Below are positions 15,548 to 49,034 of a stretch of 64,000 nt of DNA, one piece after another. This stretch comes from Acutalibacteraceae bacterium (GTDB lineage: Bacteria > Bacillota > Clostridia > Oscillospirales > Acutalibacteraceae). Position 1 is the first letter of the stretch. The number at the start of each line of letters is the position of its first letter. A program made the translations under genes and the position numbers. The stretch is from positions 2,844 through 66,843 of the forward strand of contig JAZLIZ010000053.1 of NCBI GenBank assembly GCA_045617665.1, given 5' to 3'. The notes under the pieces were generated by a model. It ran no database searches, was not told where the DNA came from, and worked only from the letters and a program-made list of their open reading frames with translations.

Positions 15548-15567
15548 GATTGGGAGGAAAAATTAAC

Positions 15568-16278
15568 ATGAAACACGGAAAAAAATATAACGAGAGCGCA
15601 AAGCTCATTGAAAAGGCAAACCTTTATGAACCCGCAGAGGCTCTTGACATTGCTGTTAAGACCGCAACTGCAAAGTTTGATGAAACAGTAGAAGTTCACA
15701 TCCGCCTCGGCGTTGACTCCCGTCACGCTGACCAGCAGGTTCGTGGCGCTGTTGTTCTTCCTAACGGAACAGGTAAGTCAGTTAAGGTTGCTGTTTTCGC
15801 AAAGGGCGCTGATGCCGATGCCGCAGTTGCTGCAGGTGCAGAGGTTGTCGGTGCTGAAGACCTTGTTGCAAGAATTCAGGGCGAAGGCTTTATGGATTTT
15901 GATGTTTGTATTGCCGCACCTAATATGATGGGTCTCGTTGGCCGTCTTGGTAAGGTTCTCGGTCCCCGTGGACTTATGCCCAGCCCCAAGGCAGGCACAG
16001 TTACCCCTGATGTTGCAAAGGCTGTTACAGAAGCAAAGGCAGGTAAGATTGAGTACCGTCTTGATAAGACAAACATCATTCACTGCCCCATCGGTAAGGC
16101 TTCATTCGGTGCTGATAAGCTTAAGGAAAACTTTGATACTCTTCTTGATGCTGTTATTAAGGCAAAGCCTGCCGCATCAAAGGGTCAGTACATCCGTTCC
16201 TGCTGTGTAGCAACAACAATGGGCCCCGGCATTAAAATCAACCCCAACAAGGTTGGCTCAGCTGCTTCCGCTCAGTAA
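15568..16278 (+). CDS. rplA: 50S ribosomal protein L1
   Basis: [30 protein letters not shown]. Confidence 0.99.
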
Positions 16279-16301
16279 TTGAACGGTACAATTTCATAAA
16301 C

Positions 16302-16379
16302 AAAAACGGATAGAAATTTCGGACGGCACAATTTAGCGATTAAACTAAGTTGTACCGTCCTTTACTTCTGTCCGTTTTT
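16302..16379. terminator. Long imperfect inverted repeat, probable bidirectional terminator between rplA and uvrC
   Basis: AAAAACGGATAGAA/TTCTGTCCGTTTTT outer stem and GGACGGCACAA/TTGTACCGTCC inner stem. Confidence 0.75.
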
Positions 16380-16465
16380 GCTGTTCAAAAATGCCATTTT
16401 GAATGAAAAATAAATATGATATGTATTTCAATGCATAAACCCTAATATGAGAAGAAGGGTGCTTT

Positions 16466-18313
16466 TTAATTTCTGAATGCTTCGTAAACTGCCTGTGCTG
16501 ATTTTTCCGTCATACCCTTGACCGATTTCAGCTCATCAACAGTTGCTTCGGAGATTGCCTTGATTGTTTTGAATTTTTTAAGCAAAGCCCTTGCTCTTGC
16601 TTCGCCTATGCCGTCAATATTGACGAGGGTTGTGGAAATGGAAGCTTTTTTATTTTTCAACCTGTGGTATTCAACCGAATAGCGGTGAACCTCCTCCTGT
16701 AGGCTCGAAACAAGCGTAAATGCGGAGCGCACAGAGGTCAAAGCGATTTCATCCCCGGAGGTGGCAATGGCTCTTGTGCGGTGGTGAGAATCCTTAATCA
16801 TACCGAAAAGGGGTATGTTCAGATTATGCTTCTGCAAAACGGGTAAAACAGCGTTGACCTGCCCCTTGCCGCCGTCAAGCAGAATTAAATCGGGCAGCTT
16901 GCCGAAGCCTTCTTCTTTATTTTCGGCAATTTCGTATTCATTCAGTCGTCTGTCAATAACCTCAGCCATTGATGCGTAATCATCCTGACCGCTGAAGCCC
17001 TTGATTGTGAAACGCCTGTATGCTTTCTTAAAGGGCTGACCGTTTTTGAAAACAACCATTCCGGCAACATTGTTTGTGCCGTCTGTGTGGGATATATCGT
17101 AGGATTCAATATATTCCGGCGGTGATTTCAAGCCAAGCAGCTTGCCGAGCTCATCAAGTGCGGCGGTAACTTTTCCGCCCTTTGAGCCCATATATATTGC
17201 AAGCTTTTGTGCAGCATTTGAACGGCACATTTCAATAAGTGAATGCTGTTCGCCACGCTGCGGAATAACTATATTAACCTTTTTACCTCTGATTGATGTA
17301 AGCCATTCCTGTAAAAGCTCGGAATCGGCAACATCACCGTCAAGAGCAACACGGCAGGGGACATCATTACGCATTGAATAATAGCTTCTGAGCAGTTCAC
17401 GGCGTGCCTCGGTTAAATCCTCCGGCAAATCAATGATGAAATGCTCGCTGTCAAAAAGCCTTGAATTTCTGAATCTTAAAACGGATAAACAGGCCTTTGC
17501 GTTGCTGCCGTTTGCTCCGCCGACTATCGCAAAAACATCCTGCTCCTCAACTGCGGCGGCAACAACCTTTTGCTTATCCGTAACCTTATTTATGGCGCTG
17601 ATTTTGTCACGGATTTTAGCCGCTTTTTCGTATTCCAGATTTTCAGAGTAGCTTTGCATTTTTGCGGTCAGCTCTTCAATCACCTTGCCGGAGCCCTCGG
17701 TTATAAAACGGCGAGCGTTATCAACCGCCTCGTTATGCTCTCTCATAGTGATTTTTCCGGCACAGGGTGCGGAGCATAAACCGATTGAATAATTCAGACA
17801 GGGTCGGCTTTTTTTATAATCCCTCGGAAAAACCTTTGAGCATTGTGGCAGCTTGAATATCTTTTTAGCGGAATCAACAGCATTAGAAATACCGAATGAG
17901 CTTATATAGGGTCCTAAATATTCGGCGCCGTCATCCTCCGCACGGCGAACAACGGAAATACTCTTCCAGCCCTTATGCTCAATTCTGATATAGCTGTAGC
18001 CCTTGTCATCCTTCAAAAGAATGTTGTATTTCGGGGAATGCTGCTTAATAAGAGAACATTCAAGAACAAGAGCCTCAAATTCGCTGTCACACATTATGTA
18101 ATCAAAGCGGTCAACATTTTCAACCATTTTTCTTACCTTGGCTGTGTGATTGTTCTGAGAGCCGAAATATTGGCTGACACGGTTTTTCAGTGCCTTTGCC
18201 TTGCCCACATATATTATATTGTCGGTTTTATCCTTCATAAGATAAACCCCCGGCGTAAGGGGGAGGCTCATTGCCTTCTTACGAAGCTCCTTGATTTTTT
18301 CGTTCATTTTCAT
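16466..18313 (-). CDS. uvrC: Excinuclease ABC subunit C
   Basis: GIY-YIG region (PGVYLMKD..IIYVGKAKALKNRVSQYF), ESYDISH, LPDLILLDGGKGQ, C-terminal HhH. Confidence 0.98.
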   Translation of the reverse strand: MKMNEKIKELRKKAMSLPLTPGVYLMKDKTDNIIYVGKAKALKNRVSQYFGSQNNHTAKVRKMVENVDRFDYIMCDSEFEALVLECSLIKQHSPKYNILLKDDKGYSYIRIEHKGWKSISVVRRAEDDGAEYLGPYISSFGISNAVDSAKKIFKLPQCSKVFPRDYKKSRPCLNYSIGLCSAPCAGKITMREHNEAVDNARRFITEGSGKVIEELTAKMQSYSENLEYEKAAKIRDKISAINKVTDKQKVVAAAVEEQDVFAIVGGANGSNAKACLSVLRFRNSRLFDSEHFIIDLPEDLTEARRELLRSYYSMRNDVPCRVALDGDVADSELLQEWLTSIRGKKVNIVIPQRGEQHSLIEMCRSNAAQKLAIYMGSKGGKVTAALDELGKLLGLKSPPEYIESYDISHTDGTNNVAGMVVFKNGQPFKKAYRRFTIKGFSGQDDYASMAEVIDRRLNEYEIAENKEEGFGKLPDLILLDGGKGQVNAVLPVLQKHNLNIPLFGMIKDSHHRTRAIATSGDEIALTSVRSAFTLVSSLQEEVHRYSVEYHRLKNKKASISTTLVNIDGIGEARARALLKKFKTIKAISEATVDELKSVKGMTEKSAQAVYEAFRN

Positions 18314-18393
18314 TTACCGCTTATCTTTGATAACAATATTATATATTCCCGTGCCCGTTTCGTCAAATATTTTTAATTATTATTAAAAAATAC

Positions 18394-18422
18394 TTGATTT
18401 TCTTCGTAAAATACATTACAAT
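18394..18422 (+). promoter_or_regulatory. Sigma-A promoter of tRNA-Ser
   Basis: TTGATT, 17 bp, TACAAT. Confidence 0.65.
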
Positions 18423-18459
18423 ACTAAAGCGTTAAATGCAGATGAAGTTTGACAGATTT

Positions 18460-18552
18460 GGAGAGTTGTCCGAGCTGGCCGAAGGAGCACGATTGGAAAT
18501 CGTGTAAACGGCAAACACCGTTTCAAGAGTTCAAATCTCTTACTCTCCGCCA
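18460..18552 (+). tRNA. tRNA-Ser (anticodon GGA)
   Basis: GGAGAG/CTCTCC acceptor stem, CACGA-TTGGAAA-TCGTG anticodon arm, long variable arm, GTTCAAATC T-loop, encoded CCA. Confidence 0.97.
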
Positions 18553-18595
18553 ACAAATAACACACTTTTGTCTACCAAAAGTGTGTTATTTGTTT
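18553..18595 (+). terminator. Intrinsic terminator after the tRNA
   Basis: Perfect 18-bp inverted repeat ACAAATAACACACTTTTG / CAAAAGTGTGTTATTTGT. Confidence 0.8.
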
Positions 18596-18598
18596 ATC

Positions 18599-18773
18599 CA
18601 AGCCGCAGGCTTGGCATATCATCACGGCGTAGCCGTGTATATCATCCGCCGTATGGCGGTATCTCATCACGGCAACGCCGTGTATTGTTTTCCTGCGGCT
18701 TGATGATATGCAATTCCTACGGAATTGATGAGATACAACACTTCGTGTTGATGATATACAAGGCTTCGCCTTG
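18599..18773. repeat. Mosaic hairpin array 1: seven short palindromes joined by 8-9-nt TATATCAT-type then ATGATATA-type linkers (REP/BIME-like)
   Basis: caagccGCAggcttg, cacggcGTAgccgtg, ccgccGTATggcgg, cacggcAACgccgtg, caattccTACggaattg, caacacTTCgtgttg, caaggcTTCgccttg. Confidence 0.9.
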
Positions 18774-18821
18774 ATTTATTTACCGAAGTATTATTTAATA
18801 CTTTTTGAAAGGAGTGGTTTT

Positions 18822-19196
18822 ATGGCTAAAAATTATTTACTCGATTATTCGGAACAACTTGCGACAGATATAGAATTGCTTTGCCGTAATATTAAAGCAC
18901 CATCCAATACCATTTTCCAAATCCGCAAAAGTTCCAGTAGTGTTTATGCTAACATCCGTGAAGCGAATTACGGTCAAAGCAAAGCGGATATGCTTTCAAA
19001 ATTTGAAATTGCAACAAAAGAATGCAGTGAAACTGAAGGTTGGCTCAAATTATTATTCAATTCAAACGATATTGATGAAGATACATATAAAAAGCACCGA
19101 AATTTGTGCGGAAGAATAAGGCGAATGCTTATTGCAAGTTCTAAAACACTTAAAAATTCTGACAAATCCAAATCTTCGGGAGAAAAACAGTCATGA
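18822..19196 (+). CDS. Four-helix-bundle protein (TIGR02436 / 23S rRNA IVP, Avd-like family)
   Basis: QIRKSSSSVYANIREA..GQSKADMLSKFEIATKECSETEGWLKLL signature; AAGGAG RBS before ATG 18822. Confidence 0.88.
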   Translation: MAKNYLLDYSEQLATDIELLCRNIKAPSNTIFQIRKSSSSVYANIREANYGQSKADMLSKFEIATKECSETEGWLKLLFNSNDIDEDTYKKHRNLCGRIRRMLIASSKTLKNSDKSKSSGEKQS

Positions 19197-19624
19197 ATAT
19201 CGAACTTATTCCTTTGCATCCCGAAGATAAAGATATATCAGATTTGAAGAAGATACACACTTCCTTGTCTGTTGCAAAATACATTTCCATATCCGAAAAT
19301 TACTTTGACTATGTTACAAATACGGACGGAGTAATTTATTATAAAATAATATGGAACGGTATATTAGCAGGTGGCGTTCATTGTGAATATACAGACGGAA
19401 CAATGTTTATGAGTGTATGTGTTGATGAATTATACCGTCGTCGCGGTATCGCCGAAGCGGCATTAAATCAACTGTTTCTTGCGCCGACAAGCGACGTGGA
19501 TGTGATCGAAGTAAATATTGAAGAAACAAATGTACCGTCACTTTTACTTTTTCAAAAACTCGGTTTTTCAAAAATCGGCAAAGAAGATGAATTGATAACC
19601 CTGCGAAAGTTATTACGACGATAA
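19193..19624 (+). CDS. GNAT family N-acetyltransferase
   Basis: VCVDELYRRRGIAE acetyl-CoA motif A, NVPSLLLFQKLGF motif B; ATGA overlap with the upstream gene. Confidence 0.88.
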   Translation: MNIELIPLHPEDKDISDLKKIHTSLSVAKYISISENYFDYVTNTDGVIYYKIIWNGILAGGVHCEYTDGTMFMSVCVDELYRRRGIAEAALNQLFLAPTSDVDVIEVNIEETNVPSLLLFQKLGFSKIGKEDELITLRKLLRR

Positions 19625-19697
19625 ATCCCGGCTTTTTGAGGTGTACCTTTTACTCGTTCTTACCTTAAAAATGTACCTTTTGGTTGCTCTTATACAG

Positions 19698-19731
19698 AAA
19701 AAAGCATCGACTTTTTGTCGGTGCTTTTTTT
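19698..19731 (+). terminator. Intrinsic terminator after the GNAT gene
   Basis: AAAAAAGCATCGAC-TTTTT-GTCGGTGCTTTTTTT. Confidence 0.75.
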
Positions 19732-19733
19732 CA

Positions 19734-20054
19734 ATGATATCCGTTCCTTGCGGAACGGGTGATATACCTTCGGTATGATATCCACCTGCGGTGGATGATA
19801 TATGCTTCGCATATGAAGGAACGGATAGTATATCATATTTGAGCAAAGCGAAAATATATCATACGGCATCAGCCGTATATCATATTGCCGTAAGGCGATA
19901 TATCATTAAATGTTCAATATCATCCGCCGTCAGGCGGTATATCATCAAAGGCGGCTTGCCGCCTTTGTATCTCATCACGGCATCAACCGTGTATTTTTTT
20001 GCGGCTTGATGATATACAACGCTTTGCGTTGATGATATATAAGGCTTCACCTTG
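19734..20054. repeat. Mosaic hairpin array 2: about 12 palindromic units with (A)TATCAT / ATGATAT(A) linkers, related to array 1
   Basis: ccgttccTTGCggaacgg, ccaccTGCggtgg, acggcATCAgccgt, ccgccGTCAggcgg, caaaggcggCTTGccgcctttg, caacgcTTTgcgttg; its 3' part parallels array 1 unit by unit. Confidence 0.88.
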
Positions 20055-20141
20055 ATTTTACAAGAGCTCAACGCAATCCGTCAATTTGTCGGGAATATCT
20101 TTTTTGTTCGTAATCATAAATAAAGTCAATCATAAATTAAA

Positions 20142-20165
20142 GCCACCCGTTTTGTGACGGGTGGT
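20142..20165. terminator. Hairpin left of the CRISPR array (could terminate a minus-strand pre-crRNA)
   Basis: GCCACCCGT-TTTGTG-ACGGGTGGT in AT-rich context. Confidence 0.55.
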
Positions 20166-20240
20166 TATGAATTTTTATAAGCATTATTGATTGGCAGTGG
20201 CGAAAATAAGTTACAGATGTTGAAAAATGAAATATATTAA

Positions 20241-20371
20241 CTGTAAGTTTATCAATATCCATCATAGGGCTAAAACATAACCGGTGTCGTGCAAATCAAT
20301 TTTGTTGTGTAAGTTTATCAATATCCATCATAGGGCTAAAACTGAGGCGTGACATCTTAAAGCAATTTTGG
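20241..20371 (-). CRISPR. Orphan type II CRISPR mini-array: two 36-nt repeats (GTTTTAGCCCTATGATGGATATTGATAAACTTACAC/G on the minus strand) with spacers of 30 and 29 nt
   Basis: Repeats at 20241-20276 and 20307-20342 (35/36 identical); spacers at 20277-20306 and 20343-20371; GTTTTAG start and 36/30 geometry typical of type II. Confidence 0.9.
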
Positions 20372-20493
20372 GTGTAAGTTTATCAATATCCATCAATAGT
20401 TCTAAGATAAGGCAATATGCCGTAGGGTATGGTGGTATCCTGACAAATGTCTAATCCACCGAATTATTACAGCCTGATAGGCTGTATTTTTTT
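20372..20493 (+). ncRNA. tracrRNA (anti-repeat, nexus, 3' hairpins, poly-U)
   Basis: 24 nt perfectly complementary to the repeat 3' part, bulge, CUAAGAU pairing with GUUUUAG (lower stem), AAGGCAAUAUGCC nexus resembling the SaCas9-type AAGGCAAAAUGCC, terminal TACAGCCT/AGGCTGTA hairpin + T7. Confidence 0.85.
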
Positions 20494-20715
20494 ATCTTTT
20501 TTATATATTCTTTTTCTAATTCAATCGCCTTTTCCGGGGCGGTAATTTTCATTTCTCCGGCAAAGGTGAAGAGCCAGCCCCAAAATGTTGGGCTAATTTG
20601 CACATCAACCTTTGTGGTGCAAGTGTTGCCGTTTGCTTTTATTTTTGTGTTATAGCTGAATTCATCATAAATAACAGGAATCAGCTTGCGGTCAAATTCA
20701 AGGGTAACCGCCGAG
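20451..20715 (-). pseudogene. 3' remnant of a WYL-domain transcriptional regulator (WCX domain only)
   Basis: VTLEFDRKLIPVIYDEF...VDVQISPTFWGWLFTFAGEMKITAPE resembles the C-terminal WCX domain of clostridial WYL proteins; no HTH or WYL part and no plausible RBS/start. Confidence 0.7.
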
Positions 20716-21156
20716 CCTCCACAGAGTTGCAGAAAGCAGGTTGCCGTATTTTTTGCTGTCATAAATCTGCTTTACTATTTCGTATTCGCTCCAGAAACGC
20801 AGACACTGTGCAACCATATATTTGACATTGTTTTCCTCTGCGGTTTTGTAGAGCAAGTCAACATCATCCTCGTTAAGAGAAACGGGCTTTTCGGAGAGCA
20901 CATTTATTCCCTTTTTCATTGCTCTTACGGCGTACTCTGCGTGCAGATATGTGGGCAGGCAGATATCAAGAATATCAATCTCGTTTTCATCCGTCATTTT
21001 ATCAAAATCGGTATATTTCTTTTCAACATCGTATCTTTCGGCTTTTTCGGGCAGAATATCGCAAACCGCAACAACCTCAACATCATCCATCGCAAGCCAG
21101 TTAGGCACATGAGCACCGCTGATTCCGCCGCATCCTATAACCGCAACCTTTAGCAT
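20698..21156 (-). pseudogene. Truncated Gfo/Idh/MocA oxidoreductase (N-terminal Rossmann domain only)
   Basis: VAVIGCGGIS, ICLPTYLH, SEKPV motifs; stops at 152 aa where the family is usually over 300 aa; good GGAGG RBS. Confidence 0.8.
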
Positions 21157-21283
21157 TATAAATTTACCTCCGTTATTTTAGCGTATATTATAATCTTTAT
21201 CGCAGTTTTATTCAATAATTTTATTGATATTCAGGTGAAATATTGCTATTATATTTTCCATAAAGCACGGAGGTTTTGGTTCT

Positions 21284-22324
21284 ATGGAAAAGCCTGTTTT
21301 GAAATTCAACAATGAGGGAAAATTCAGAATACTTATGGTTTCCGATTTTCACTCTGCAAAAAACAAAAAACTGCCGGAGGATTATTCCGGCAAGATGATA
21401 AAGGGCATTGATGCTCTTATTGAAAATACGAATCCCGATTTTGTTTTTATCGGCGGTGACCAGTGCATAGATGCTTCTTCAATTGAGGAAGCAAAAGCAG
21501 AAATGTCAAGACTGATTGAGCCTGTTTTGAGAAGAAAGCTTCCGTGGGCTGCCTGCTTCGGTAATCACGATAATGAAATCGGCTTGCCTGTCTGCGAAGA
21601 AGAAAAGGCTTATGAAATGATACCGGGCTGTCTTAATGAGGCAGGGGATGAAGAAATAGACGGAACAGGCAATTTTCGTATTCCCGTTTATGATAAAGAT
21701 GGTAAAGAGCTTAAATTCAATCTTTTTGCCCTTGATTCTCACAGAGAAATAACGGATTTGATTGAAAAATTCAATCTTGATAAGGATACCTGCTTTATTT
21801 TGCCACACCATTTTAACGAGAACGCAACAGGCTGTACTCCCACATTTGAACAGGTTATGTGGTACTATAATACCTCAAAGCAGATTGAAAAGGAGCAGGG
21901 CAAAAAAATCCCTGCGATTATGTTTATGCATATCCCTCTGCCGGAGCTTCTGCATATTTTCAGAAATCCGGAGCAGTGTGATGCAACAGGCAACAAGAGA
22001 GAGGCAAGCGGATGCTGTGAGCTTAATTTCGGCTTGTTCGGTGCGGCTCTGCAAAGAGGAGATGTTAAGGGCTTTTTCTTCGGCCATGAGCATCTGATTG
22101 ATATACAGGGTAAATACTGCGGAATTACCATGGCACAGGATGCCGCAATCGGCTATAATATGTCTGCCCACGATGATTTAAGAGGGGGCAGGGTGATTGA
22201 CCTTTTTGAGGACGGAGCTCTTGAAACAAGAGCAGTTAAGCTGATTGATATTCTCGGCAGAGAGGCTATGCGCCGCCGGGATTATTTTGAGGGCGGATGC
22301 AAATATTTCATCAGAGATTTATAA
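21284..22324 (+). CDS. Metallophosphoesterase (Dcr2/purple acid phosphatase-like)
   Basis: VSDFH, GGDQ, WAACFGNHD, FMHIPLPE, FFGHEH. Confidence 0.85.
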   Translation: MEKPVLKFNNEGKFRILMVSDFHSAKNKKLPEDYSGKMIKGIDALIENTNPDFVFIGGDQCIDASSIEEAKAEMSRLIEPVLRRKLPWAACFGNHDNEIGLPVCEEEKAYEMIPGCLNEAGDEEIDGTGNFRIPVYDKDGKELKFNLFALDSHREITDLIEKFNLDKDTCFILPHHFNENATGCTPTFEQVMWYYNTSKQIEKEQGKKIPAIMFMHIPLPELLHIFRNPEQCDATGNKREASGCCELNFGLFGAALQRGDVKGFFFGHEHLIDIQGKYCGITMAQDAAIGYNMSAHDDLRGGRVIDLFEDGALETRAVKLIDILGREAMRRRDYFEGGCKYFIRDL

Positions 22325-22336
22325 GGAGAAAACAAA

Positions 22337-22600
22337 ATGGACGGCAACCGCTCAACCTATTTTTTACAGGCGGATGAAATAGACCACCTTACAATCAGAT
22401 ATACGGATTTCGGTGAAAAGCTCAATAAGAAAAAGGCAACGGAAATGATACATTTTTATAATGATATTTATTCCGCCGTTTCCGAAAAATTAAAGGCTTA
22501 TGAGTTATCCTTTGAAGCCCTTGACCGTTATTCCGAAAAGGAATTATATGACATTCTTGTAATAATCAGAACGGTTTTGCTTGAACTGGCGAGAATATAA
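22337..22600 (+). CDS. Hypothetical protein
   Basis: AAGGAG RBS; immediately follows the previous gene. Confidence 0.6.
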   Translation: MDGNRSTYFLQADEIDHLTIRYTDFGEKLNKKKATEMIHFYNDIYSAVSEKLKAYELSFEALDRYSEKELYDILVIIRTVLLELARI

Positions 22601-22620
22601 CTTCTTCATTGACAGCATAC

Positions 22621-23211
22621 CTATATAGAGAAAATTCTCTTTCTTATTGCTGGTACTCTTATTAAAACGAATACCACAACTGCGGTTATTATAAATTCCG
22701 GCAGCAGATATATTCCGTTGTAGCAGAGGGAATAAAGAACAGGGGCATTTTCAAAGGTTGAGCCGAAAAGCTCCCACTGCTCAAGGTTTGTGAATATAAT
22801 GCAGCCGGAGAGAAAGTGGGAAGCAAAGCGTAAAAGCACGGCAATAAACAGCCCTGCAATTATTCCGGCTGTTCCCTTTTTTTTGAAAATTCCGGCAATG
22901 CCCAAAACCGTGTAAGCGACAATGTAATCAAACAGAATACAGCCTATGAGCATATTGGCATTTAAGCCCCAGCCGAGCAGACCGCTCATTGTTATGCCGA
23001 AAATAAGCTGAAAAACAGAATCGGCAAAGGCTGAAAGAAAGCCCCATTTTAAGCCGTGCCTGATTGAAACAAGGCAGACGGGCAGCATACTCACAAGGGT
23101 AACACCGCCGCCGAGCGGCATTTGCCATACCTTTATCAGAGATAAAACAACGGACATTGCAACAAGAATTGAGCTTTCTGCAAGTATATTGATTGGATTT
23201 TTACTTTTCAT
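22621..23211 (-). CDS. thiT: Energy-coupled thiamine transporter S component ThiT
   Basis: MPLGGGVTLVSMLP, LFDYIVAY, RFASHFLSG, YSLCYNGIY; TPP riboswitch upstream. Confidence 0.92.
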   Translation of the reverse strand: MKSKNPINILAESSILVAMSVVLSLIKVWQMPLGGGVTLVSMLPVCLVSIRHGLKWGFLSAFADSVFQLIFGITMSGLLGWGLNANMLIGCILFDYIVAYTVLGIAGIFKKKGTAGIIAGLFIAVLLRFASHFLSGCIIFTNLEQWELFGSTFENAPVLYSLCYNGIYLLPEFIITAVVVFVLIRVPAIRKRIFSI

Positions 23212-23239
23212 ATTTTCCTCGATTTCAGCAGGTGAAAAA

Positions 23240-23272
23240 CAAAATGACCGCCGGAAGACCGACGGCCATTAA
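23240..23272 (-). terminator. Expression-platform terminator of the TPP riboswitch
   Basis: Minus strand ATGGCCGTCGG-TCTT-CCGGCGGTCAT followed by TTTGTTTT. Confidence 0.7.
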
Positions 23273-23283
23273 ACTTTTATCTG

Positions 23284-23364
23284 TCTTCCTACGCCGGCAT
23301 TATCCGTTTCAGGTTAAAGGGTTCGCATTCTGCATCTCAGCCGACTTTCAGTCAGCACCCCTGC
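23284..23364 (-). promoter_or_regulatory. TPP riboswitch aptamer
   Basis: Minus strand GGGGTGC..GGCTGAGA..ACCCTTTAACCTGAAACGGATAATGCCGGCGTAGGAAG matches the THI-box consensus. Confidence 0.93.
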
Positions 23365-23413
23365 TTTTTTATTTGTCTGAATTTTATCATAAGAAAAAGA
23401 ACTTGTCAACGGC

Positions 23414-24517
23414 TTATTGCATATTTTCGCTGTTTCTGTGTCTTTCCTGTGCAAAAGAGCCGTTACGGTCAATTTCCATTTTAACATAGCCCTGAAGCCA
23501 GTCTTTTTCTTCATAACCGAGCTTGCTTTCGGCGGTGTATGAGCCGTAACCGGAGGGCTGAAGATAACTCAGCAGTATTCCTTCATATTCAAAGCCGAAA
23601 TCGTTCAGATGGTCATGGCCGAAGAATACAGCCTGTGTTGAGCCCATAATTCTGATTGCTTCAAATAAGCCGGAATCAAAGCCGGATTCACAAATGCCCT
23701 CTCTCTTTTCACCGTAAAGGAACTGACGGCTTTCGTATTGCTGTTCCACCTGAGGCAGGGGAATATGAATAACCATTATTGATTTGAAATCACCGTATGC
23801 AAGCTTTGTTGAGCTGACCTTGTCGGTGTACCATTTAATCTGTGAGGTTTTAACGCCGTCATAGGGGTCTTCATCATCGGGAATGCCGTATTCCGCCTTT
23901 GTATCGGGCAGAACCTCATCGCCCGTATCAAGGAAGAAGAAGCTTTCACAGAGGGTGTTATCGCTGTTGAGAATGTTTAACTGATAGTTGCCGTCACCCC
24001 ATATATCCTCCGGGCCCTCAAGCATAAGGCAATGGTCATAGGATGAAAAGACATCAATCATTTCCGAACGGTTGAGTGAGGTGCTGTTATCTCCCTCGTG
24101 GTTACCGTGACAGCCTGCCCAGTAAACACCGAGATTTTCAAAAATCTGTGCAAGCTGATTACATCTTTTTTTGTTGAAGCCGGAGGTGACGGTATCACCG
24201 CCGAAAATAACAAGGTCGGGTTTTTCTTTAACAATGTTATTTACGATATTTGCAACCGTAATTTTCGAGGTTTTGTTTTTTCCGTCAAGGTGAATATCGG
24301 TAAAGAAAAGCACCTTTATTTTTTCTTCTCCCTTGTTGCGGACTGTAACGGTATCCTCTGTTTTCGAAACAACCTCAAGGTTATCTGTGACAATGCTCTG
24401 AATTGATTCAATATCGTAATTCAGAGGGTGGGGCAAAAAAGAATAGCCTATACTGCCGCCGATTATGAGAAGAACGAGAATAACTGCCGGGATAATGATT
24501 TTTAACTTCTTTTTCAT
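23414..24517 (-). CDS. Membrane-anchored metallophosphoesterase (Dcr2-like)
   Basis: N-terminal TM helix, FTDIH, FGGDT, WAGCHGNHE, HIPLP, FFGHDHLND. Confidence 0.85.
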   Translation of the reverse strand: MKKKLKIIIPAVILVLLIIGGSIGYSFLPHPLNYDIESIQSIVTDNLEVVSKTEDTVTVRNKGEEKIKVLFFTDIHLDGKNKTSKITVANIVNNIVKEKPDLVIFGGDTVTSGFNKKRCNQLAQIFENLGVYWAGCHGNHEGDNSTSLNRSEMIDVFSSYDHCLMLEGPEDIWGDGNYQLNILNSDNTLCESFFFLDTGDEVLPDTKAEYGIPDDEDPYDGVKTSQIKWYTDKVSSTKLAYGDFKSIMVIHIPLPQVEQQYESRQFLYGEKREGICESGFDSGLFEAIRIMGSTQAVFFGHDHLNDFGFEYEGILLSYLQPSGYGSYTAESKLGYEEKDWLQGYVKMEIDRNGSFAQERHRNSENMQ

Positions 24518-24585
24518 AGTTACACCTGCTTTCAAAAACACCGCCATCTGATGATGACGGTGTGGCTGATGAAAATTTGCTGAGC

Positions 24586-46486: not shown

Positions 46487-47773
46487 GTGAACAAAATGTT
46501 CAAATCTGAAAATGTGGCAGACGGCGTAAGAGTTGTCTGCATTGAAACCGACAGATACAAAACCGCAGAGCTTGATATTTCAATGGCATTGCCCCTTGAT
46601 GATAATTGTGCTGCAAATGCACTTGCAATTTATCTGCTAAAGCGTTCCTGCAAGGCTTATCCCGATTTCACAATGCTCCACGGTAAGCTTGATGAGCTTT
46701 ACGGTGCATCTCTGGGTGCAAGTGCGGGAAAATACGGTGATTCGCAGATATTATCTCTCGGAATAACCTGCCTTGACGATAAATTTTCGCTTGATGAAAG
46801 CAGTATCATTGAAGAAGCCATTGAGCTTCTTTCCGGTATGCTCTTTAACCCCAATGTCAGATGCAGGTCATTCGGTAAAGAAAACTTTGAAACCGAAAAA
46901 AGGCTTATGCTTCAGCGTATTCTTGATGAGCAGGATGATAAAAGACTTTACGCAACACAGCAGTTGATTAAAAATATGTTTGCCGGAGAGCCGTACGGCA
47001 GAAGCAAATACGGCACAGAGGAAGAGATAAACGCCGTAACAATGGCTGATGTTTATGAAGCATGGCAGAATATGCTCACAAAATCCCGTATTCAGATTAC
47101 CTGTGTCGGCAGTATTTCAGCCGAAAGGGTAATTGAAATATTCAGAAAGAAATTTGCAAAGCTTCAGAGAACACCGGTTGAAATGAAATCGGTTTTCACA
47201 CCGAAAGCGGAAGCTTCAAAGAGATTTGAAGAAAGATTACCTATGAATCAGGGCAAATTCGTTATGGGCTACAGAACGGGAATGACCCATAACCACGATA
47301 ATGAATTTGCAGAGCGTATAGCGGTTGATATTTTCGGCGGCGGCACATATTCAAAGCTTTTCACCGTCATTCGTGAAAAAATGTCACTTTGTTATTATTG
47401 CCGTGCAACCCTCGTAACAGGCAAGGGCTTTGTGCTTGTTGACTGCGGTATTGATACCGATAAGGAGGAGCCTGCAACAAAGGGCATTATGCAGCAGCTT
47501 GAAGCGGTTAAAAACGGCGACTTTAATGATGATGTTCTTGCATCCTCAAAGCGTTCGCTCCGTGAAAGAATGACCTTTTCAACCCCGGACGGCATCCTTA
47601 TGTGGTATGCCGGCCAGATTACCGATGAAGAGCTTCGCACTCCCGAATATGTGATTGAAAACATTGAAAAGGTTACAAAGCAAGAGGTTATGGAATGTGC
47701 CGCAAAAATGAGCCTTGATACGGTGTTTATGCTGGCGGCTGATGAACCGGAGGGTGAGAAGGATGCAGATTAA
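46487..47773 (+). CDS. M16 peptidase-like inactive subunit (YmfF-like)
   Basis: SKLFTVIREKMSLCYY; no HxxEH; paired with the next gene. Confidence 0.85.
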   Translation: MNKMFKSENVADGVRVVCIETDRYKTAELDISMALPLDDNCAANALAIYLLKRSCKAYPDFTMLHGKLDELYGASLGASAGKYGDSQILSLGITCLDDKFSLDESSIIEEAIELLSGMLFNPNVRCRSFGKENFETEKRLMLQRILDEQDDKRLYATQQLIKNMFAGEPYGRSKYGTEEEINAVTMADVYEAWQNMLTKSRIQITCVGSISAERVIEIFRKKFAKLQRTPVEMKSVFTPKAEASKRFEERLPMNQGKFVMGYRTGMTHNHDNEFAERIAVDIFGGGTYSKLFTVIREKMSLCYYCRATLVTGKGFVLVDCGIDTDKEEPATKGIMQQLEAVKNGDFNDDVLASSKRSLRERMTFSTPDGILMWYAGQITDEELRTPEYVIENIEKVTKQEVMECAAKMSLDTVFMLAADEPEGEKDAD

Positions 47774-49034
47774 AGAATACAGGGATGAAAAGCTTCAGGA
47801 GAGCGTATTCTGTGCAAAGCATTCATCCGGGCTTGAAATCAGAGTTATGCCGAAGGCCGGCTATGATTCCGCTTATGCTGTTTTCGGTGTAAAATACGGC
47901 TCAATAGATACATTTCTCAAAAAGTCTGACGGAACATTTGACCCCATTCCCGAGGGCACGGCACATTTTCTTGAGCATAAATTATTTGAAAGCGAAGAGC
48001 TTGATGCCTTTGAGCTTTTTGCAAGAACAGGTGCATCGGCAAATGCCTACACATCCTTTGAAAGAACGGCTTATCTTTTCAAGGGCTCAAGCAATATTGA
48101 AAAATCCCTTGAATATCTGCTTGATTTTGTTCAGAATCCCTATTTTACGGCAGAAACCGTACAAAAAGAGCAGGGCATAATCGGGCAGGAAATCAGAATG
48201 TATCAGGATATGCCGGACTGGATGGTTATGTTTAATCTTCTGCGTGCTCTTTATAGAGATAACCCGGTCAGAGTTGATATAGCCGGAACGCAGGAATCTA
48301 TTTCACAGATTGACGATAAGCTTCTCTATAACCTCTATGAAACATTTTACAATCCGTCAAATATGGTGCTTTGCATTGTCGGTAATGTTGAGCCGGAGAA
48401 AATTTTCAAGCAGGTTGAGGGCAGCATAAAGAGAGAAAAGAAAACAGTTCCCGAAAGAAAATTTGTCAAGGATTCTCCGAAAGCGGAGCAGTCATATATT
48501 GATTGCAGACTTGCAGTCGGCAGAAAGCAGTTCCTTTTAGGCTTTAAGGAGGCTTTAACAAAGCCGGAAATCACCATAGAGGATGAAACCGCTTCAAATG
48601 TTATGCTTGAAGCACTGTTCGGAAAATCCTCACCGTTTTACAGAAAACTCCTTGACGAGGGGCTTATTGATAACGATTTCGGCTCTGAAATGTTTAACGG
48701 CTACGGCTTCTCGGCTGTTATGATAGGCGGACCGAGTGATGACCCGGAAAAGACGGTATCACTCATCAGGGCTGAAATTGAAAGAGCAAAGGCGGAGGGC
48801 ATAGACCCTGTTTTGTTTGAAAGGGCAAAGAAAAAGCTCTACGGCAGAACGGTTATGTGCTATAACGATATTGACGATATGGCAAATATGCTTATGACTC
48901 TCTATTTTACGGGTTACAAGCCCTTTGATGAGGTTGAAGCAATTAAAAATGTTACTCTTGAAACGGCACAGGCAAGGCTTGAATGTCTGAATGAAGAGGG
49001 AAGCGCATTATCTGTTGTGCTTCCTGTTGCCTGA
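47763..49034 (+). CDS. M16 zinc peptidase (YmfH-like)
   Basis: GTAHFLEHKLFE, NAYTSF, EQGIIGQEI. Confidence 0.9.
   Translation: MQIKEYRDEKLQESVFCAKHSSGLEIRVMPKAGYDSAYAVFGVKYGSIDTFLKKSDGTFDPIPEGTAHFLEHKLFESEELDAFELFARTGASANAYTSFERTAYLFKGSSNIEKSLEYLLDFVQNPYFTAETVQKEQGIIGQEIRMYQDMPDWMVMFNLLRALYRDNPVRVDIAGTQESISQIDDKLLYNLYETFYNPSNMVLCIVGNVEPEKIFKQVEGSIKREKKTVPERKFVKDSPKAEQSYIDCRLAVGRKQFLLGFKEALTKPEITIEDETASNVMLEALFGKSSPFYRKLLDEGLIDNDFGSEMFNGYGFSAVMIGGPSDDPEKTVSLIRAEIERAKAEGIDPVLFERAKKKLYGRTVMCYNDIDDMANMLMTLYFTGYKPFDEVEAIKNVTLETAQARLECLNEEGSALSVVLPVA

Follow-up and report, generated by a model that had tools for sequence, protein, structure and literature searches.

Two abutting Gut-1-type hairpin elements behind a tRNA-Ser gene of a gut Acutalibacteraceae bacterium, putative solo leaders of cassettes that encode an Avd-like IVP protein

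Gut-1 is a motif of gut Clostridia in which RUGAWAU linkers connect at least three GC-rich hairpins that are free in sequence. It was first described, from human-gut metagenomes only, as a probable non-coding RNA without a proposed function, and was rated a confident RNA on the basis of covariation (Weinberg et al. 2010, Genome Biol 11:R31, PMC2864571); since 2010 it has been an orphan motif. The raw alignment of that study contains members with GUGAUAU linkers that are preceded by a tRNA plus terminator and followed by a reversed AUAUCAC block (PMC2864571), and the Rfam model (RF01706) covers one arm only (77 nucleotides (nt)) on one strand and is entered as a small RNA (sRNA) without assigned function. 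Here the hairpin array termed array 2 is analysed, which lies at positions 19734-20056 of a 64,000-nt stretch (the window) of contig JAZLIZ010000053.1 from an Acutalibacteraceae bacterium, together with a second array (array 1) and the gene for an IVP protein, both located between a tRNA-Ser gene and array 2.

The IVP/S23p family (PF05635, TIGR02436) has thousands of members, which are found inside rRNA genes, cas operons and diversity-generating retroelements (DGRs), and to our knowledge it has no known function outside DGRs. The DGR protein Avd was described as similar to S23/IVP proteins, whose genes elsewhere are selfish inserts in stable-RNA genes (PMC4990558), and cryo-electron microscopy of the Avd pentamer showed it gripping an RNA stem-loop with all five protomers, with flipped-out bases between the protomers (bioRxiv 10.1101/2023.10.23.563531). 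Our comparisons suggest, with a probability that we put at roughly one half, that array 2 is made of two stacked solo leaders of IVP-led cassettes at tRNA ends, that such arrays are single-stranded DNA (ssDNA) or RNA platforms, most likely for IVP pentamers, which serve regulation and/or mobility, and that their units turn over at the linkers.

Array 2 contains 13 linkers of seven nt, with about 13 mini-hairpins between them; these are 9-22 nt long, GC-rich and different in stem from one to the next. The linkers are arranged as follows.

19734, 19759 (GTGATAT), 19775 and 19795: forward linkers RTGATAT, first block
19830, 19856, 19877, 19900, 19917 and 19939 (ATATCAT) and 19969 (ATCTCAT): reverse linkers
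20009 and 20032: forward linkers ATGATAT, final block

The first-pass annotation of the window had described linker blocks whose orientation switches twice, and this order is present (4 forward, 7 reverse and 2 forward linkers), as is the perfect stem that it had singled out, CAAAGGCGG/CCGCCTTTG at 19946-19967. Its view of other stems as degenerate holds in part: TTGAGC-AAA-GCGAA (19839-19852) and CACGG-CATCAA-CCGTG (19976-19991) are indeed imperfect, but some such stems are conserved G.A hairpins, and the former is not a decayed unit but belongs to a conserved type of hairpin, with a tandem G.A/A.G pair, of which many arrays have an example (CGAGC-AAA-GCGAG). A reading of the CTTCGG loops as UUCG tetraloops was rejected, as the stem register permits a UUC triloop only.

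The arrangement is far from chance expectation. ATGATAT occurs 34 times in the window, compared with 10.3 ± 3.3 times in shuffles (34 or more in 0 of 100 shuffles), and within the 323 bases of array 2 there are 12 exact copies of ATGATAT or ATATCAT (13 with the GTGATAT and ATCTCAT variants). Folded as ssDNA, the array (a 325-nt stretch) reaches −70.7 kcal/mol on the plus strand and −71.5 kcal/mol on the minus strand, compared with −38.8 ± 3.8 kcal/mol for its shuffles (z = −8.5 on both strands). Furthermore, RF01706 matches 19732-19806 (plus strand) with 66.1 bits (E = 6e-11), over the curated gathering cut-off of 50 bits; the reversed arm at 19851-19925 (minus strand) and array 1 reach 34.4 and 18.4 bits, respectively, and stay under it. 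Covariation of the kind on which Gut-1 was founded is found in 128 distinct hairpins between RTGAWAT linkers, where the stems vary and the linkers are constant. By these matches array 2 is assigned to the catalogued Gut-1 family of gut Clostridia. It differs from the Rfam model in having two arms (~180 nt) and an alternative long-range pairing, in occurring also in an 'inside-out' B form, and in a structural polarity that favours the strand opposite to the Rfam orientation; moreover, the arrays described here use many other linkers and form the leader of an IVP cassette. Two further readings were rejected: a CRISPR (clustered regularly interspaced short palindromic repeats) array, because just 7-8 nt are constant, the variable part pairs with itself and a search of the genome found no Cas1; and the repeats of a type III toxin-antitoxin system, ruled out by unit anatomy and absent partner genes.

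The genome of the window (2.12 Mb, 42% G+C) holds five array loci, namely arrays 1 and 2, C65:2860-3055, C87:26700-27000 and C61:~47990-48200. Alignment of array 1, array 2 and the C87 array splits array 2 into two abutting elements, A and B'.

19732-19912: element A, a complete two-armed Gut-1 element (RF01706) with a layout common to L014, L033 and L047
19741-19758 (X), 19764-19776, 19782-19794 and 19802-19812: hairpins of element A arm 1, with 4 RTGATAT linkers; hairpin X is CCGTTCC-TTGC-GGAACGG
19816-19826: centre of element A, AAGGAACGGAT, complementary to the 5' strand of X
19839-19852, 19863-19876 and 19884-19899: hairpins of element A arm 2, with 4 ATATCAT linkers
19913-20056: element B', a B-type copy without the X hairpin, aligned with array 1 and with C87:26700-26890
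19924-19937, 19946-19967 and 19976-19991: hairpins of element B' arm 1, with 3 reverse linkers
20000-20008: distal X' copy of element B', TGCGGCTTG
20017-20031 and 20041-20053: hairpins of element B' arm 2, with 2 forward linkers
20055-20106: solo-array flank, recognized by homologous flanks at C87:26890-26945 and in L007, L011, L026, L028, L113 and L119

B-type arrays are defined by ATATCAT on the first arm and ATGATAT on the second; element B' is without their initial X hairpin (CCAAGCCGCAGGCTTGG), carries several imperfect stems and, judged by alignment, is paralogous to array 1 and to the arrays of C87 and C61, with its 5' part truncated. Since array 2 is A followed by B', its three blocks are A arm 1, A arm 2 joined to B' arm 1, and B' arm 2. 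Thus its length and its three orientation blocks, which had been put down to the expansion of a single array, come instead from a complete A-type element followed by a B-type element that misses its first hairpin. Array 2 as a whole is two abutting 'solo' copies from a mini-hairpin array family of which Gut-1 is one catalogued variant and whose complete form is the non-coding leader of a cassette; it is probably a leftover or spare platform.

The flank of such solo arrays is ~50-75 nt long and carries the motifs ..GAGGGTTCGAA..ATACGC..AAAATATCTTTTT..GTAGCCCATAGCCA. In the window it harbours on the minus strand a promoter-like site (TTGACG-18-TAAAAT, 20084 to 20055; 10 of 12 matches in the scan) that points into the array. 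In relatives, the solo flank closes with ...GCCA or ...GACA (a pseudo-CCA) and is succeeded by a new terminator and array. Two explanations of the flank failed: it is not a small open reading frame (ORF), as neither frame nor ATG is conserved and the window is without an ATG there, and it is not a decayed piece of the IVP module, as it has no similarity to the inside of the module.

The cassette itself was defined through relatives of the IVP gene. A scan of named genomes with the IVP of the window gave 381 relatives, of which the best 80 were examined; the relatives in the locus counts are not independent, and the counts are descriptive. With 82-96% identity, the 80 proteins represent as many species, from metagenome-assembled genomes of gut Acutalibacteraceae, Oscillospiraceae and other Clostridia. 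A full B-type array, in the order terminator-array-promoter-IVP, is present in 71 of the 83 loci of this IVP subfamily; several of the remaining loci are cut by contig ends in or near the array, and about 18 of the 80 contigs end at most 350 nt upstream of the IVP, in or near the array. More widely, among 41 relatives a two-armed array or tandem heptamers lies directly upstream in about 18 of 30 IVP loci, with over 10 different linker sequences, each found in both orientations and in blocks. Between array and IVP start codon, the IVP-linked arrays of relatives carry a canonical promoter (for example, TTGAAA-17-TATAAT).

These modules start 0 nt past the CCA behind 17 tRNA anticodons, and in two loci behind transfer-messenger RNA (tmRNA); the gap between tRNA 3' end and X hairpin is 34-48 nt and is occupied by one terminator. 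In nine loci a near-identical terminator plus array is placed behind nine tRNA genes (eight anticodons) whose upstream regions are without detectable homology, thus the terminator is part of the module, which arrived at these sites independently. The gene that follows the IVP is usually coupled to it via ATGA and is hypervariable (66 ORFs in 40 clusters), encoding lipoproteins, small membrane proteins, a WapI-like immunity protein, YbjQ, a nucleotidyltransferase or GNATs, with most products having no Pfam match. From these comparisons, a complete module comprises a bidirectional terminator, an array, a promoter, an Avd-like IVP gene, a hypervariable cargo and a conserved tail, and modules can stack. 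The cassette is also found in other surroundings: two Logan contigs encode the exact IVP protein of the window with the cassette in another context, and the cassette of locus L095 is 94.6% identical over 1072 bp, with homology stopping at the tail and no array 2 after it.

In the window, the module next to the tRNA-Ser gene is laid out as follows.

18460-18552, plus strand: tRNA-Ser(GGA) (ARAGORN; Rfam tRNA 49.6 bits); module 1 starts one base past its CCA
18553-18597: bidirectional intrinsic terminator, ACAAATAACACACTTTTGTCTACCAAAAGTGTGTTATTTGT + TTAT, the left end of module 1
18598-18775: array 1, B-type, with paralogues in C87 and C61 and orthologous arrays in 71 of 83 IVP loci; its order is X hairpin CCAAGCCGCAGGCTTGG, 3 reverse linkers with hairpins, X' CCTGCGGCTTG (18692-18702) and 3 forward linkers with hairpins
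18822-19196, plus strand: IVP gene, encoding a four-helix-bundle Avd/S23p-like protein of 124 amino acids
19193-19624, plus strand: cargo gene, encoding a GNAT acetyltransferase (PF00583) of 143 amino acids
19643-19692, plus strand: cassette tail, two direct repeats of GTACCTTTTNNNNGNTCTTA, the right end of module 1
19698-19731: bidirectional terminator, AAAAAAGCATCGACTTTTTGTCGGTGCTTTTTTT, the left end of module 2; L014 has the same layout behind a tRNA CCA

A terminator near-identical to that of module 1 stands behind tRNA-Val(CAC) in L105. The last hairpin of array 1, CAAGGCTTCGCCTTG, supplies TTGATT as a candidate −35 element, and in the B-type copy of C61 the last hairpin likewise supplies a −35 TTGATT, 18 nt before TGATATAAT. 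The IVP protein matches PF05635 (E = 4e-18), TIGR02436 (72 bits) and the PDB entry 2RLD, which holds five chains (E = 2e-14), and the GNAT gene is translationally coupled to the IVP gene through an ATGA overlap. The tail motif recurs downstream of four different cargo families (L103, L148, L167, L168 and L177) and just upstream of the array of the next module in L166 and L179. On sequence grounds, the stack behind tRNA-Ser consists of an intact module 1 (array 1, IVP and GNAT), the solo A and the truncated solo B', with an orphan CRISPR-like remnant and broken genes farther out.

Several searches around this module were negative. An exact look-up of the GNAT protein sequence found no record, PADLOC gave no defence-system match for IVP or GNAT, and the phage and plasmid collections held no match to the module. 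In 29 members of the genus the region upstream of uvrC, which corresponds to the uvrC/tRNA-Ser site of the window, is not syntenic and in none of them is the tRNA-Ser located there; one genome per species was compared, and no same-species pair of empty and filled sites was found.

Relatives also offered variants of the layout. Heptamer repeats of this kind were seen at L040, L042, L044, L059, L050, L052, L053, L056, L063, L071 and L081: some IVP genes have plain tandem heptamers (GGAATTC, CAATTCG or AATTAGG) in front of them, others two mirrored heptamer arms without hairpins, and in two relatives similar hairpin-less mirrored repeats occur upstream of uvrC, with no adjoining IVP seen. The hairpins look like an optional insert between repeated heptamers. 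In L117, ~330 nt upstream of the IVP, the loop of the X hairpin of a B-type array holds a 46-nt insert, CCAAGCCGCAG-[TAGGGGTTCCCC...GGGGGTTCCCGTAG]-GCTTGG. In the genome of the window, on the minus strand of C61 (G000 C61:~47000-48500), a B-type array with 3 + 4 linkers stands behind another tRNA and terminator and is followed by the promoter TTGATT-18-TGATATAAT and an IVP gene cut after ~75 codons, that is, a decayed cassette.

Close relatives reveal how the arrays change. It had been proposed from the two arrays of the window that the arrays gain, lose and swap units around unchanging linkers, and whole-unit differences of this kind were found between cassettes whose IVPs are 96-100% identical: the second arm of array 1 reads a-c-t in the window (GCAATTCC.., CAACAC.. 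and CAAGGC..), a-b-c-t in L095, which has one extra unit (ACAGCCCTTTCGGGCTG plus linker), and a-b'-d-t in L103, which has an extra unit and one replaced. The four B-type copies of the genome (array 1, B', C87 and C61) similarly share units in different numbers and orders. Compensatory stem changes, a further prediction of the first pass, were also present, such as CAAAGGCGG/CCGCCTTTG versus CAAAAGCGG/CCGCTTTTG and CAACAC/GTGTTG versus CAACGC/GCGTTG versus CAACTC/GAGTTG. Across the 71 loci the stems are 96-100% paired, compared with 48-55% in chimeric controls whose 3' half comes from a different locus (71-73% in these controls for X and the terminal hairpin). The number of distinct 5' stems is 13-28 per unit position and 10 for the X hairpin, and the number of linkers is constrained, with 3 + 3 in 50 of the 71 B-type arrays. 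Such gain, loss and exchange of units may proceed by recombination or slippage at the identical linkers, with the stems kept paired.

The X hairpin has a second potential partner. In B-type arrays its 5' strand matches the distal X' copy over a mean exact run of 7.6 nt, compared with 4.0 nt for mismatched partners, with covarying variants such as GACAG/CTGTC and GTCGCAG/CTGCGAC; among A-type elements, six different X sequences have matches of 9-12 bp to X', with the alignment-free test being noisy. The 5' strand of X is thereby predicted to pair alternatively with the distal partner copy, enclosing arm 1.

The hairpins themselves are asymmetric. When the 128 distinct hairpins were oriented to the RTGAWAT linker, the closing pair was C-G in 108, the loops on this strand were TNC or TNNC (TTC 24, TGC 11, TAC 8, TGAC 9 and others) and the stem mismatches were C.T/T.C in 36 cases versus G.A in 3. 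Read on the ATWTCAY strand, 45 of the 75 triloops are C-GNA-G and 27 of the 41 tetraloops are C-GNNA-G, accompanied by tandem sheared G.A pairs. Nearest-neighbour energies rate the ATWTCAY strand as more stable in 54-57 hairpins and the other strand in 20-22 (Wilcoxon p ~1e-4, not corrected for hairpin relatedness). By these measures the units are polar and the two arms look to be one unit type on opposite strands; unit polarity and the mirror symmetry of the arms are a new point on Gut-1 arrays. A-type and B-type elements are told apart solely by the direction of their favourable strands, which point either away from the centre or to it. As polarity flips with the linker, any single strand or transcript has one favourable and one unfavourable arm in either orientation, which argues against a simple one-strand RNA with equivalent hairpins. 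The suggestion from the sequences is that the arrays act orientation-independently and in single-stranded form.

A DNA counterpart of these units is known. Mini-hairpin DNA with C-GNA-G or C-GNNA-G is extraordinarily stable, nuclease-resistant and poorly bound by the single-strand-binding protein SSB, it occurs at ssDNA priming sites (G4 and ssiA) and N4 promoters, and its RNA versions are far weaker (PMC13037366, PMC3201870). The predicted hairpins here match the definition of the motif (C-G closing pair, GNA or GNNA on the ATWTCAY strand), and have the same closing pair, loop and sheared G.A as d(GCGNAGC)/d(GCGNNAGC) of Hirao and co-workers (PMC13037366). The known cases are single hairpins in phage and plasmid origins, whereas here 3-4 are chained by a constant linker and mirrored on both chromosome strands. 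DNA rather than RNA as the acting form is suggestive only.

The most likely mechanism would be that the array acts when single-stranded, as DNA or RNA, with compact stable hairpins spacing 3-4 identical linkers into a docking platform for a pentameric IVP at the cassette boundaries, in analogy to Avd gripping its RNA stem-loop with five protomers. With its mirrored arms the site would function whichever way it is turned, and IVP binding could serve control of cassette expression, given that the last hairpin overlaps the −35 element, and/or cassette mobility. The protein adjacent to the array does fall in the Avd fold family (PF05635/TIGR02436; 2RLD, five chains), although a profile search of the PDB from the IVP returned only 2RLD and the relation to Avd rests on published structure comparisons. 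A tree of the IVP with 25 relatives tracks the linker family rather than the host family, with A- and B-type arrays that share a linker grouping together twice (moderate support), which fits cognate recognition. A link between array and IVP is also seen at genome level, where Gut-1 and IVP occur together in 18 of 41 genomes, Gut-1 alone in 5, IVP alone in 6 and neither of them in 12. The likeness to described systems has its limits: no DGR reverse transcriptase stands beside the module (pairs of template and variable repeats were not searched for), the array offers several repeated sites rather than one stem-loop, and in contrast to the intervening sequence of 23S rRNA, an RNase III-removed insert in an rRNA helix that carries the IVP ORF, the module here is located behind tRNA and tmRNA genes.

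A number of observations weigh against the docking of IVP pentamers on the array. Linked modules inherited together would give the same tree pattern as cognate recognition. Gut-1 matches can far exceed IVP genes (34 versus 4 in G027, 31 versus 2 in G031 and 21 versus 0 in G018, a 100% complete genome). Solo arrays outnumber IVP genes several-fold and an IVP adjoins about 5 of the 28 best Gut-1 loci; arrays thus persist without IVP, and IVP binding is not the sole reason for their existence. For mobility, no integrase, transposase or dedicated reverse transcriptase was found in the module, and the genome has no RVT_1 match beyond the two halves of a group II intron reverse transcriptase/maturase at contig ends (C53:2-781 and C25:19293-19856). 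Moreover, nearest-neighbour energies favour the same strand with DNA and with RNA parameters; the call for DNA over RNA rests on loop statistics.

Three other explanations compete with a docking platform for IVP. The persistence of solos, also in IVP-free genomes, and their abundance would suit a free-standing structured sRNA, a longer Gut-1 acting in trans, for example as a sponge for an RNA-binding protein via the single-stranded linkers; we hold this as a tentative alternative with a minor share of the likelihood. CsrB and RsmZ are protein-sponge RNAs with repeated unpaired motifs between hairpins, which the unpaired repeats here resemble. In the window, such an RNA would be initiated on the minus strand at 20084-20055, traverse B' and A and finish at the terminator (19731-19698), giving ~350 nt. 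The solo layout is gene-like, in that one end has the conserved flank with its promoter-like site and the opposite end an intrinsic terminator, in line with the confident-RNA rating of Gut-1 from covariation by Weinberg et al. (PMC2864571). Yet either transcribed strand would carry one unfavourable arm with UNC loops and C.U mismatches (36 versus 3), C-G-closed GNA triloops are a stability motif of DNA and not of RNA, and the flank promoter is conserved loosely only and is missing from IVP-linked arrays, where the IVP promoter takes its place. The position of the arrays strictly between transcription units, directly past terminators, is what would be expected if they were selfish or near-neutral palindrome repeats comparable to repetitive extragenic palindromic (REP) sequences and bacterial interspersed mosaic elements (BIMEs), which would spread and recombine by themselves and at most insulate neighbours or protect 3' ends, the IVP neighbourhood then arising from joint accumulation in permissive gaps behind tRNA terminators. 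Like REP/BIME (REPIN) arrays, they are extragenic arrays of small palindromes in alternating orientation that follow operons, occur in multiple copies and vary between relatives; copy number ranges from 0 to >30 among genomes of one genus, unit content is mosaic, and the breakage of about 18 of 80 contigs in or near the array fits repeats as well. REP units, however, are conserved in stem sequence, vary in their connecting motifs and depend on REP-associated tyrosine transposases (RAYTs), whereas the arrays here do the reverse, with stems free in sequence. The transposase domain Y1_Tnp (PF01797) was not found in G018, G023, G027 and G036, which have 21-34 Gut-1 matches, and was found in G010 and G019, which have none, so that a RAYT/IS200-type transposase was rejected as driver for want of co-occurrence. 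In addition, 3 + 3 units (50 of 71), polarity, X/X' pairing and the overlap with the IVP promoter are kept in at least 71 loci of different species, an order beyond what neutral repeats show, and this explanation is unlikely.

Less likely again is that the arrays are sites of recombination or priming on ssDNA (like attC, single-strand initiation (ssi) or single-strand origin (sso) sites), with hairpins formed on the lagging-strand template or on transferred ssDNA that mark insertion, excision or priming of cassettes, the mirrored arms guaranteeing one correctly oriented arm for either fork direction. The mini-hairpin signature, with its precedents at G4, ssiA and N4 promoters and its poor SSB binding, the mirror symmetry of the arms and the cassettes with conserved ends and variable cargo stacked behind tRNA genes all speak for it. 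The integron attC cassettes are the nearest likeness, being small units with conserved structured ends and hypervariable, mostly unassigned cargo that are stacked at one platform, with attC sites recombining as folded single strands. In contrast to integrons, however, no recombinase was found among the ORFs of 15550-24547, IntI included (the rest of the genome was not searched for IntI), there is no attI, every cassette brings a promoter and an IVP gene of its own, any tRNA or tmRNA gene serves as platform with its 3' end, and the cassettes are bordered by a hairpin array and by two 20-nt tail repeats instead of by the R''-L''/L'-R' of attC. No recombinase, relaxase or primase gene lies in or beside the module, and the absence of matches in phage and plasmid collections and of an empty/filled-site pair within a species also counts against such a site.

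A more speculative idea, which we consider improbable even beside these, concerns how the modules reach their sites. They might represent a new kind of mobile element that is joined, via an RNA intermediate, to the free CCA-3'OH of mature tRNAs and of tmRNA. An antisense module RNA would end at the bidirectional terminator, the tRNA 3' end would prime a DNA copy while the Avd-like IVP holds the array for a host reverse transcriptase, and the tRNA-linked copy would then be fixed via recombination with the tRNA gene. Such joining would explain the 0-nt junction past the CCA of 17 tRNA species and of tmRNA, the A run at the start of each module, the stacking behind pseudo-CCA ends, and the presence of IVP genes inside rRNA in other phyla.

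No report linking Gut-1, IVP and tRNA-adjacent cassettes was found in a limited literature set. The window and the 80 related loci tie two orphans, Gut-1 and IVP/S23p, into one putative module with defined ends, a defined target (the base past the CCA of tRNA or tmRNA) and hypervariable cargo, and polar units of mini-hairpin DNA type, mirrored on two strands, provide a concrete physical reading of the hairpins. If the modules are mobile, they would form a cassette system of abundant gut Clostridia without a recognizable integrase.

Farther out from the stack, a CRISPR-like mini-array at 20242-20395 consists of three 35-nt repeats (TGTAAGTTTATCAATATCCATCATAGGGCTAAAAC; the reverse complement starts with GTTTTAG) with a 66-nt period; elsewhere in the genome, in which no Cas1 was detected, the repeat is absent. 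It is followed on the minus strand by a 103-amino-acid ORF with a weak WCX-domain match (20451-20762) and a 152-amino-acid N-terminal fragment of a GFO_IDH_MocA oxidoreductase (20698-21156), broken genes that fit decay growing with distance from the tRNA. Further downstream, an ordinary thiamine pyrophosphate (TPP) riboswitch (23269-23372, minus strand, 57.3 bits) precedes the gene of a thiamine transporter (Thia_YuaJ, 22621-23211).

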